A stretch of 64,000 nucleotides of DNA from Bacillales bacterium (GTDB lineage: Bacteria > Bacillota_I > Bacilli_A > RF39 > UBA660): NCBI GenBank assembly GCA_016290885.1, contig JAEEVN010000002.1:2489-66488 (forward strand). Direction: 5' to 3'. Position numbers and translations under genes: made by a program. A model generated the notes under the pieces. That model was not told the origin of the DNA. It ran no database searches and saw only the letters and a list, made by a program, of their open reading frames with translations. Shown here one piece after another: positions 21,138-22,587 of this stretch (positions within the stretch are counted from its first letter, which is position 1; the number at the start of each line of letters is the position of its first letter).

Positions 21138-21806
21138 ATGAGTGCAATAAATGAAATACATATAAAAGGCGAGGTATATAGTGATAAAACATATATGCAA
21201 ATTGAAGAAATTAACCATACAGGAACTTATTTATTTCAAATAGGGGATGAGTTTCGTCAACATCGCTTTTATTATTTAAACAATACTTTTATTCATGGGG
21301 ACGTAGATTTTTTAGGAATGTCGCATGACGGCCCTATATACTGGGAGATTATGCCAGATTCATTTATTGCAGTATACAACGAGCTTGTTGAGGATAGTAA
21401 AGATGACAAAGAATACATTGGTAGAATTTCACCAAATGTAGATAAAGCTATAAGAGAGCATGAAGAATTCTTAGAAGAAGAACTTTCTACAGCATTAAGA
21501 GAAAACCTTGAATTAAAAAGAGTACCAAAAAACAAACAAATGGAATTTGGAATAGAATTGTTAGATACTGCACCTACAATGGACGCAAAGGAAGAGAAAA
21601 TAGAAGAATTACACTTTGAAAATAAAATACTAAGATTATTAGGAGAGAAATTTACTTTAGAACACACACCAGAAGATGAAAGACTAGCAATTATAGATGA
21701 AACATTGAAAAAATCATCTTCAAAAGACGCAAAAGAAATAATGATCATTAGATTAATGCGCCAAAACAGAAGCTTAAGAATCAAAAATGATCAAAACAAT
21801 GAATAA
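21138..21806 (+). CDS. Hypothetical protein (222 aa)
   Basis: AAGGAGG SD 7 nt upstream. Bracketed by parS site 1 and the NBS/parS pair. No recognisable motif; the C-terminal half is charged and probably helical. Confidence 0.7.
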   Translation: MSAINEIHIKGEVYSDKTYMQIEEINHTGTYLFQIGDEFRQHRFYYLNNTFIHGDVDFLGMSHDGPIYWEIMPDSFIAVYNELVEDSKDDKEYIGRISPNVDKAIREHEEFLEEELSTALRENLELKRVPKNKQMEFGIELLDTAPTMDAKEEKIEELHFENKILRLLGEKFTLEHTPEDERLAIIDETLKKSSSKDAKEIMIIRLMRQNRSLRIKNDQNNE

Positions 21807-21830
21807 AAATATTTCCCGGGAAATATTTTT
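21805..21830. promoter_or_regulatory. Noc-binding-site (NBS) palindrome 1; terminator-like, overlaps the stop codon of the 222-aa ORF
   Basis: AAAAATATTTCCCGGGAAATATTTTT is a 26-bp perfect palindrome. The core at 21810-21825 is TATTTCCCGGGAAATA, an exact B. subtilis NBS. Confidence 0.75.
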
Positions 21831-21836
21831 TGATAT

Positions 21837-21854
21837 ATGTTTCACGTGAAACAT
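21837..21854. promoter_or_regulatory. parS site 2
   Basis: ATGTTTCACGTGAAACAT. The core at 21838-21853 is an exact parS consensus, 12 bp from the NBS core. Confidence 0.85.
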
Positions 21855-21863
21855 TATTATAAA

Positions 21864-21892
21864 TTGACTTTTTATTTAAAATAAAGTATATT
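21864..21892 (+). promoter_or_regulatory. Sigma-A type promoter of the SRP RNA gene
   Basis: TTGACT (21864-21869), 17-nt spacer, TATATT (21887-21892). The RNA helix begins about 6-7 nt downstream. Confidence 0.65.
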
Positions 21893-21897
21893 AATTA

Positions 21898-21971
21898 TGC
21901 ACAACGGAGAACTTGGAATCAGGTCAGGATAGAAATATAGCAGCCTTAACATTTAATTTCCGTGTGTGCAT
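21898..21971 (+). ncRNA. ffs: Signal recognition particle RNA (small 4.5S-type, scRNA/ffs)
   Basis: A roughly 74-nt hairpin with 5' TGCACAACGG pairing to 3' CCGTGTGTGCA. Domain IV signature GGTCAGG-ATA-GAAA-TAT-AGCAGCC (compare E. coli GGUCAGGUCCGGAAGGAAGCAGCC). T8 run follows. Neighbours tadA and dnaX as in Bacillus. Confidence 0.85.
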
Positions 21972-21988
21972 TTTTTTTGGAGTAAAAT

Positions 21989-22393
21989 ATGAACGAAAGA
22001 TTAATTATAGATGAATTAAATAAACTTACGGATAAAGCTATTAGAAAAAATGAGGTTCCGGTAGCGTGTATTATAGTTAAAGATGATAAAATAATAGCAA
22101 AAGCTTATAATAGAACAGTAAAAACTAATAATATATTAGATCATGCAGAAATAATCGCAATAAAAAAAGCTTCAAAAAAAATACATAATTGGAGATTAAA
22201 TGATTGCAAATTATATGTATCATTAGAACCTTGTGATATGTGCAAGGAAGTAATAAAGAAATCTAGAATATCCGAAGTTATATATTATTCAAAGCAAAAT
22301 AATAATAAAACAGAAAAAAATATAGAATATAAATATATAGAAAATAAAGAAATATCAGATAAACTAACAACATTTTTTAAAAATATAAGATAA
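21989..22393 (+). CDS. tadA: tRNA-specific adenosine deaminase (CDA-fold)
   Basis: 134 aa. Zinc motifs HAEIIAI and PCDMCKEVI. Position next to ffs/dnaX fits. Confidence 0.85.
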   Translation: MNERLIIDELNKLTDKAIRKNEVPVACIIVKDDKIIAKAYNRTVKTNNILDHAEIIAIKKASKKIHNWRLNDCKLYVSLEPCDMCKEVIKKSRISEVIYYSKQNNNKTEKNIEYKYIENKEISDKLTTFFKNIR

Positions 22394-22397
22394 TCCA

Positions 22398-22427
22398 CCA
22401 ATGTTTCACGTGAAACATTGGTTATTT
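22398..22427. promoter_or_regulatory. parS site 3 inside a 24-bp perfect palindrome plus T-run; likely also the tadA terminator
   Basis: CCAATGTTTCACGTGAAACATTGG (22398-22421) followed by TTATTTTTT. The core at 22402-22417 is an exact parS consensus. Confidence 0.85.
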
Positions 22428-22444
22428 TTTGCTCTAAATTTATC

Positions 22445-22470
22445 AAAAATATTTCCCGGGAAATATTTTT
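22445..22470. promoter_or_regulatory. Noc-binding-site (NBS) palindrome 2
   Basis: Identical 26-mer AAAAATATTTCCCGGGAAATATTTTT, core at 22450-22465. Similarity to copy 1 continues about 9 nt downstream (TT[G]ATATATGT). Confidence 0.75.
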
Positions 22471-22587
22471 TATATATGTGAATATTTATTAATAAATAAA
22501 ATATAAAAAAAGATAGATTTTTATTAGTTATTTTGTTAATCTATATAGTTAAATATGTTATAATTATTAAGGAAAGGAAAGATAAAT

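Follow-up and report, generated by a model that had tools for sequence, protein, structure and literature searches.

The DNA analyzed here, a 64-kb stretch of a Bacillales bacterium genome (contig JAEEVN010000002.1; here referred to as the window), is a replication-origin region with a GC content of 27%. Between gyrA and dnaX it carries five palindromes of two kinds, three parS sites, the sites of ParB, and two Noc-binding sites (NBS), the sites of its paralogue Noc, and each NBS lies beside a parS. The same pairing at one spot in related genomes suggests a two-protein centromere. Our core claim, which we regard as reasonably probable, is that these are functional sites for two paralogous proteins and that their pairing is under selection. 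The components themselves are known; what is new is the conserved interleaving of the sites, the tandem arrays in which they alternate, and a Noc paralogue that lacks the membrane-targeting helix. As an earlier note on this DNA had supposed, no description of a natural parS-NBS juxtaposition was found in the searchable full-text literature. The features on which the analysis turns are as follows (palindromes are given without strand).

2162-3118, minus strand: Noc-type ParB-family gene (318 amino acids [aa]), downstream of rsmG; predicted reader of the NBS
12164-13552, plus strand: dnaA, marker of oriC; the site cluster lies 8.9 to 10.3 kb to its right
21058-21073: parS1, a perfect parS in an extended palindrome (21052-21079) with a T-run, 10 bp past the gyrA stop codon
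21805-21830 (core, 21810-21825): NBS1, a 26-bp palindrome overlapping the stop codon of a 222-aa open reading frame (ORF); the same 26-mer stands at the orthologous position in three closer relatives (L203 to L205)
21838-21853: parS2, a perfect TGTTTCACGTGAAACA ending 10 bp upstream of the -35 hexamer before the signal recognition particle (SRP) RNA gene
21893-21978, plus strand: ffs, the small SRP RNA gene, within the site cluster (53.7 bits)
22402-22417: parS3, a perfect parS in an extended palindrome (22397-22422) that leads into a T-run; plausible tadA terminator
22445-22470 (core, 22450-22465): NBS2, the identical 26-bp palindrome, in the tadA-dnaX spacer

The two 26-bp palindromes that the earlier note had reported as identical are exactly so: AAAAATATTTCCCGGGAAATATTTTT occurs at both places and has no other match in the window, even when 3 mismatches are allowed (0 matches are expected in shuffled sequence). 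Their inner 16-mer, TATTTCCCGGGAAATA, had been recognized as an NBS, and it is a perfect one, matching the core with which Jalal et al. (2021) worked in vitro, GGATATTTCCCGGGAAATATCC. Similarity continues beyond both copies as T(G)ATATATGT, and the first copy does overlap the 222-aa ORF at its stop codon (TAA; the ORF ends at 21806). The parS partners were also correctly placed, separated edge to edge by 12 bp (21826-21837) and 32 bp (22418-22449), that is, with center-to-center distances of 28 bp (NBS1-parS2) and 48 bp (NBS2-parS3). To these we add parS1, a third perfect copy that had gone unmentioned. Thus, the 16-bp palindrome TGTTNCACGTGAAACA is present in three perfect copies close to the origin, as expected of a parS, and all five sites are intergenic, ca. 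9 to 10 kb from dnaA. Five further assemblies of the same species (98.9 to 100% identical) retain all of them, so they are not an assembly artifact. Across the lineage, the NBS is conserved in this extended 26-bp form, AAA(T/A)TATTTCCCGGGAAATA(A/T)TTT, and a recent duplication as the origin of the two copies was rejected on the grounds that the same 26-mer is the conserved form of the site in relatives.

Immediately after NBS2, the sequence ATATATGTGAATATTTAT (22471-22490) resembles the NBS1-parS2 junction minus ca. 7 bp (TTCACGT); an alignment by eye matches at 15 of 18 positions. Possibly a parS has decayed here, and NBS2 would then be the remnant of an NBS with a parS on either side.

Conservation, classes and spacing of the paired sites

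Conservation was assessed by scanning one genome from each of 185,579 species for a parS followed, after 4 to 34 bp, by the 14-bp NBS core. At least 120 loci were recovered, against fewer than 0.001 chance matches by our own estimate, which was not computed by a tool. Among the 120 loci listed, 119 are the same locus, in which sites occupy the gyrA-ffs and tadA-dnaX spacers and no others (gyrA, sites, SRP RNA gene where present, tadA, sites, dnaX), while the remaining one (584 bp) was too short to place. The SRP RNA gene was found at the equivalent place in 10 of 12 related loci scanned. The loci listed come from uncultured gut Bacilli, metagenome-assembled genomes (MAGs) with GC contents of 22 to 37% (nearly all 23 to 32%), under submitter labels that include Bacilli, Tenericutes, Erysipelotrichaceae, and Clostridium sp. 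CAG:417, CAG:710 and CAG:1000, the last three of which we take to belong to the GTDB order RF39. The median pairwise identity among the loci is only 39% for DnaX and 41% for TadA, and therefore the arrangement must be old and maintained. The earlier note had named, as the alternative to a conserved pairing, the chance duplication of a terminator cassette; with pairs in at least 120 species-level loci, of which at least 119 are orthologous, as well as in three closer relatives and in tandem arrays, this is not borne out.

The median cluster contains 4 parS and 2 NBS within ca. 570 bp, and the largest one listed has 18 sites. Several species (L013, L016 and L078 among the loci) carry tandem arrays of 8 to 9 copies of a 64-, 75- or 82-bp unit, each unit with one parS and one NBS; the repeats are 90 to 93% identical, while between species the spacers are unrelated and the cores intact. 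In the three closer relatives (L203 to L205), orthologous pairs are kept downstream of gyrA, upstream of the SRP RNA gene and downstream of tadA, but at altered spacings of 25 to 57 bp. One of them (L203) has a parS-spacer-NBS cassette of ca. 80 bp duplicated after gyrA and after tadA. Such cassette duplication is thus part of how the clusters evolve, yet it is insufficient to account for the depth of conservation. In three species (the window, scaffold_24 and k141_107760), the pairs and the Noc-type gene are found on one contig.

Could the sites be terminators, or a selfish tandem repeat, with no part in protein loading? The extended palindromes of parS1 and parS3 immediately follow gyrA and tadA, respectively, are predicted to form stable hairpins (-12.9 and -14.1 kcal/mol; z scores of -3.9 and -5.0) and run into T-runs, so a second use of both as terminators is plausible; the duplicated cassette and the tandem repeats of the arrays also fit an explanation of this kind. 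The NBS hairpins, however, fold no better than shuffled sequences (-6.7 and -7.5 kcal/mol; z scores of -1.0 and -1.7) and were not called by the terminator scan. On this weak fold, the NBS palindrome was rejected as a good terminator, and the suggestion in the earlier note that its first copy likely serves as one loses most of its force. Furthermore, the cores match two well-characterized protein sites exactly, with a cognate Noc-type reader encoded nearby, and they persist at ca. 39% DnaX identity between unrelated spacers, while 8 to 9 successive terminators between two genes would have no rationale, and the NBS within dnaX is preserved through rare codons (see below). Of all the explanations weighed here, we give this one the least credence.

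Upstream of the SRP RNA gene, a promoter-like site consists of TTGACT (21864), 10 bp after the end of parS2, a 17-bp spacer and TATATT. The whole NBS-parS-promoter module (21838-21892 in the window) is nearly identical in L203 (3350-3405), whose TadA is 75% identical. It is possible that the NBS-parS pair affects ffs or tadA transcription.

The sites fall into two discrete classes. Among 804 sites of the related loci that share the frame T.TT.C.CG.G.AA.A, 483 are pure parS and 308 pure NBS (791 in all), with 13 others, and palindromes made of one half from each class are absent. So clean a division would not be expected of one tolerant protein, and two homodimeric readers are the simplest account.

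Within clusters, the two classes also alternate. Hetero-neighbor pairs numbered 352, compared with 288 ± 8.6 when labels were permuted within the scan's selection criterion (at least one pair per locus), the highest of 2000 permutations reaching 316. By type, the neighbors comprised 378 parS-NBS, 180 parS-parS and 28 NBS-NBS pairs, the last being ca. threefold fewer than under random mixing. Counting each distance once per locus, parS-NBS center distances peak at 26 to 27, 36 to 37 and 47 to 48 bp, with troughs at 30 and 41 bp. At 10.5 bp per turn, the peaks correspond closely to 2.5, 3.5 and 4.5 turns, which would place the two dimers on opposite sides of the helix.

These patterns bear on a second explanation, in which ParB and the Noc-type protein work independently and their sites merely accumulate in the scarce intergenic spacers near oriC. 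Space is indeed limited, as genes take up 82% of the DNA in the loci. Sites of both types keep clear of genes (474 of 480 parS and 267 of 306 NBS lie outside them), and the two spacers already mentioned are the only ones that carry sites. In addition, 247 of the 480 parS have no NBS within 60 bp, some NBS of relatives are unpaired, inside dnaX and further right, and parS1 of the window has no partner either. Nevertheless, co-location without coupling does not predict alternation above the permuted level, the depletion of NBS-NBS neighbors, a distance distribution with peaks and troughs instead of a flat one, one site of each kind in every array unit, or orthologous pairs that persist while their spacers change. 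We therefore consider it unlikely, although it deserves more weight than the other alternatives. Moreover, an NBS can sit inside a gene and hence is not forced into spacers. A perfect NBS occurs within dnaX in 29 related species (e.g., at 3792 in L007, 3555 in L009 and 4702 in L011), at a relative position of 0.62 to 0.72 in 27 of them and of 0.83 and 0.88 in the other two. It mostly encodes ISREI by way of TCC and CGG, codons rare in the genes of the window, and this, together with the conserved position, points to selection at the DNA level. The parS inside spo0J of B. subtilis is likewise intragenic. The dnaX gene of the window itself contains no NBS. Taken together, the data show selection for adjacency and for preferred spacing, not a mode of interplay.

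Candidate readers of the two site types

The earlier note had assumed that a Noc-like protein is encoded, and the gene was found in the same window, at 2162-3118. Its 318-aa product has the domains ParB_N (Pfam, 4.5e-32) and HTH_ParB (5.6e-33), as well as the motifs GERRYKA and ENIQRKNL. Its closest solved structures are Noc (186 to 200 bits) ahead of ParB (157 to 172 bits), and its best NCBIfam family is nucleoid_noc (TIGR04285), with 273.4 bits against a family cut-off of 315, followed by parB_part with 168.7 bits. At the specificity positions it has Q173, K179, N184 and R201, so that three of the four NBS-specifying residues (Q173, K179, K184 and R201) match. According to Jalal et al. (2020), the adenine of the NBS is read by Q173 and its cytosine by R201, given a lysine at 179 or 184; the combination of Q173 and R201 with K179 agrees with this functional rule. 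The combination QKNR is shared by 119 of the 120 homologues listed, the top match being identical to the window protein, while no QKNR variant was found in the accessible part of the supplements to Jalal et al. (2020).

What the protein lacks is the N-terminal amphipathic helix by which B. subtilis Noc brings DNA to the membrane and without which nucleoid occlusion is impaired (Jalal et al., 2021). Only 24 residues precede the end of the PNRFQPR motif, versus 46 in B. subtilis Noc; the start lies 22 residues later, and in alignment with Geobacillus Noc its residue 6 pairs with residue 26, making the window protein a natural counterpart of the engineered variant NocNΔ26. A hidden N-terminal extension was ruled out by an in-frame stop 3 codons upstream of the ATG. 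Along similar lines, 112 of the 120 homologues listed have the same N-terminal length and 119 have 21 to 26 residues to the end of the motif; neither the window protein nor any of these homologues has an extension able to hold a membrane-targeting helix. With that helix naturally missing, the protein is probably not a membrane-tethered nucleoid-occlusion factor, and the nucleoid-occlusion complexes invoked in the earlier note are doubtful. A second centromere or origin-marking protein beside ParB seems more likely. Thus, we stop short of assigning it to the Noc family in full: its predicted reading of DNA is Noc-like, but Noc-like membrane action is unlikely.

The strict conservation of parS leads us to infer that a ParB with R173 and G201 is encoded outside the window. 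When every ORF of the window and of 125 loci was searched by phmmer, with the window protein and B. subtilis Spo0J, Noc and Soj as queries, the one Noc-type gene was the only match; neither parA nor parB adjoins it in the window. A Pfam search of 40 window ORFs likewise yielded no ParB for the parS sites. Coexistence of a QKNR Noc with ParB is possible, as seen on an unrelated low-GC contig (L165), where such a Noc stands beside parA-parB in the canonical noc-parA-parB operon. In S. aureus, parB is presumably far from noc, and for this reason the absence of ParB from an origin region says little.

A metagenome scan for a ParB-type helix-turn-helix (HTH) in AT-rich codons gave 68 loci, none of which had close neighbors common to the clade; parS flanks were uninformative, and tetranucleotide similarity did not discriminate among them, marine contigs ranking highest. 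One unrelated low-GC contig (L197; ERZ1024349.160) combines parA-parB with ca. 10 parS-like sites, nine of them within 2.2 kb past the end of parB, plus a further parS inside parB, encoding VSRET, and no NBS. It was discarded as the source of the clade's ParB, given its different parS style and the lack of any link to the clade. Nor are spo0J and soj tabulated in a sporulation and peptidoglycan survey of RF39, RFN20 and ML615J-28.

That one ParB-family gene alone was found in these 64 kb of origin region and close to the origin in relatives could also be taken to mean that the clade has lost ParB and that the Noc-type protein reads both parS and NBS. Dual-specificity variants of the ParB scaffold do exist in deep mutational scans, and position 184 is N here, where K is usual. 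Yet a tolerant reader predicts mixed sites, contrary to the two pure classes described above; dual-specificity variants mostly have T or S at 201, where this protein has R, and parS-specific variants invariably have R173, where it has Q. We thus regard a single reader as highly improbable.

A possible composite centromere

How might two proteins use these sites? We propose a composite centromere close to the origin, made up of the five palindromes and serving two paralogous DNA clamps that depend on cytidine triphosphate (CTP). The parS would nucleate ParB-type dimers and the NBS Noc-type dimers of the 318-aa protein; each dimer would then bind CTP, close as a clamp and slide off its site. Clamp closure and sliding dependent on CTP are established for both the ParB and the Noc families (Jalal et al., 2020, 2021). 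Interleaved sites would load both clamp populations onto one short stretch 9 to 10 kb from oriC, so that the same DNA would be spread over by both, and half-turn phasing (ca. 26, 36 and 48 bp) would let the two nucleation complexes occupy neighboring sites on opposite faces. Dimers bound at sites of one kind could in turn obstruct the sliding clamps of the other and concentrate clamps within the cluster. The role of the mixed complex is a matter of speculation, as is the choice among the interference, cooperation or hand-over raised in the earlier note; candidate roles are origin marking, replication control, a shared influence on division timing and assistance with SMC loading.

Known systems resemble this arrangement in part. 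With the Noc-NBS system of B. subtilis and S. aureus, the window shares the identical 16-bp site, and its protein shares the ParB_N domain, Q173, K179 and R201, a Noc-like C terminus and a gene position downstream of rsmG, although it departs from those Noc proteins in its missing amphipathic membrane-targeting helix, N184 for K and the absence of parA-parB after the gene. Noc sites are typically scattered and missing from the terminus, and in those two species they are reported to stand singly, whereas those observed in the window and the related loci are concentrated beside parS in two spacers near oriC. In common with the Spo0J/parS centromere of Firmicutes, the clade has the perfect parS 16-mer in several copies within ca. 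10 kb of oriC, and its extended consensus, ATGTTTCACGTGAAACAT, equals the in vitro parS oligonucleotide core with its flanks. In B. subtilis, however, most parS are spread out across the origin region and often lie within genes, while those of the clade are almost all intergenic, dense, interleaved with the sites of a paralogue and sometimes part of terminator-like hairpins, and the ParB gene was not found in the window or related loci. The sopC centromere of F, with 12 repeats of 43 bp and one SopB site in each, is matched by the clade arrays in their head-to-tail units with palindromic ParB-family sites; these units, in contrast, are chromosomal and hold two different sites for two paralogues, and the window has single pairs and no array. 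Hajduk et al. (2019) described a functional overlap of B. subtilis Spo0J and Noc, with joint action on division timing, and Pang et al. (2017) described control of replication through the Noc of S. aureus, an activity tied to the origin and distinct from occlusion. In these precedents, Noc retains its membrane helix and no juxtaposition of the site types has been reported.

Several points weigh against the claim of paired functional sites. Searches of the window, of the 120 loci of 8 kb each and of the 10-kb flanks around the Noc-type gene in L126 and L129, two relatives, turned up neither a ParB nor a ParA gene. The Noc-type protein has N and not K at position 184, and its family score falls short of the cut-off. 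The loci were chosen for having at least one pair, a selection on which the permutation test conditions; the species are related and the array units are not independent in the adjacency statistics, while tandem arrays and cassette duplication within a genome, as in L203, can yield alternation without selection. The spacing histogram is bounded by the gap range of the scan, and its best-fitting period, ca. 11.5 bp, is only roughly helical. In addition, parS1 is unpaired in the window species, its NBS partner being present in the relatives L203 to L205.

A stronger version of the claim can be put forward tentatively, and we would not bet on it at even odds: an obligate two-protein centromere in a deep clade of uncultured gut Bacilli, built of interleaved, roughly half-turn-phased sites for ParB and a helix-less Noc, with sopC-like arrays in some species, whose clamps co-assemble or gate each other and whose Noc has been repurposed from membrane-tethered occlusion to a component of the centromere or origin. 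ParB and Noc are the textbook case of a duplicated DNA-binding protein that acquired a new specificity, with separate sites and no cross talk. This clade keeps both site types together at ca. 39% DnaX identity, while its Noc paralogue no longer has the defining feature of Noc's known function, which is relevant to the CTP switches of ParB and Noc and to bacterial chromosome segregation. If the proposal is true, the clade would offer a natural system for studying two CTP-dependent sliding clamps loaded a few turns apart (roadblocking, co-condensation or mutual recruitment), Noc function without membrane binding, and centromere construction in unculturable gut Bacilli with reduced genomes. The natural arrays could also serve as compact two-color tags for DNA labeling.

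Origin context and neighboring genes

Genes lie almost throughout on the minus strand to the left of oriC, as marked by dnaA, and almost throughout on the plus strand to its right. Left of ca. 11.6 kb, the minus strand carries argS, a DUF1934 gene, the ParB-family gene, a 116-aa ORF, rsmG, mnmG, gpsA, mnmE, jag, yidC and rnpA, and one short-chain dehydrogenase gene is on the plus strand. From dnaA rightward, the plus-strand genes listed are dnaN, comK, recF, gyrB, gyrA, the 222-aa ORF, the SRP RNA gene, tadA, dnaX, ybaB, recR, holB, and onward.

The 222-aa ORF (21138-21806, plus strand) interrupts the middle of the site cluster, at the place where parS1 has lost the NBS partner present in relatives. 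It had no Pfam or NCBIfam match and no homologue in the 120 related loci; in L204, an unannotated 180-aa ORF occupies its place. The 116-aa ORF (3194-3544, minus strand), between rsmG and the Noc-type gene, is small, hydrophilic and fast evolving, with a 201-aa counterpart at 9314-9919 in L126 (BLASTP E value of 0.004 between the two); it had no family match and is missing in L129 and L206. Six consecutive or nearly consecutive plus-strand ORFs at 34456-36712 and 40599-44083 (390, 358, 390, 263, 290 and 215 aa) had no Pfam match at an E value of ≤1e-5, and a homologue look-up for the ORF at the right edge of the window gave nothing.

Eight contigs with the Bacilli synteny (L010, L011, L017, L033, L041, L050, L060 and L067) come from MAGs labeled Muribaculaceae or Bacteroides helcogenes; all have a GC content of 25 to 29% except L010 (37%), and these labels are probably binning or labeling errors in public MAGs. 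Near the origin in relatives (L126, L129, L203 and L205), genes encode SpoIIR, SpoVG, YabP, DivIC, BofA and a class A penicillin-binding protein, and for this reason the lineage looks walled, and possibly spore-forming, despite the labels "Tenericutes" and "Mycoplasma" on some MAGs. Finally, a comK homologue (14977-15429, plus strand; Pfam ComK, 1.1e-44) lies between dnaN and recF, a position kept in all related loci that span this interval (26 of 120).

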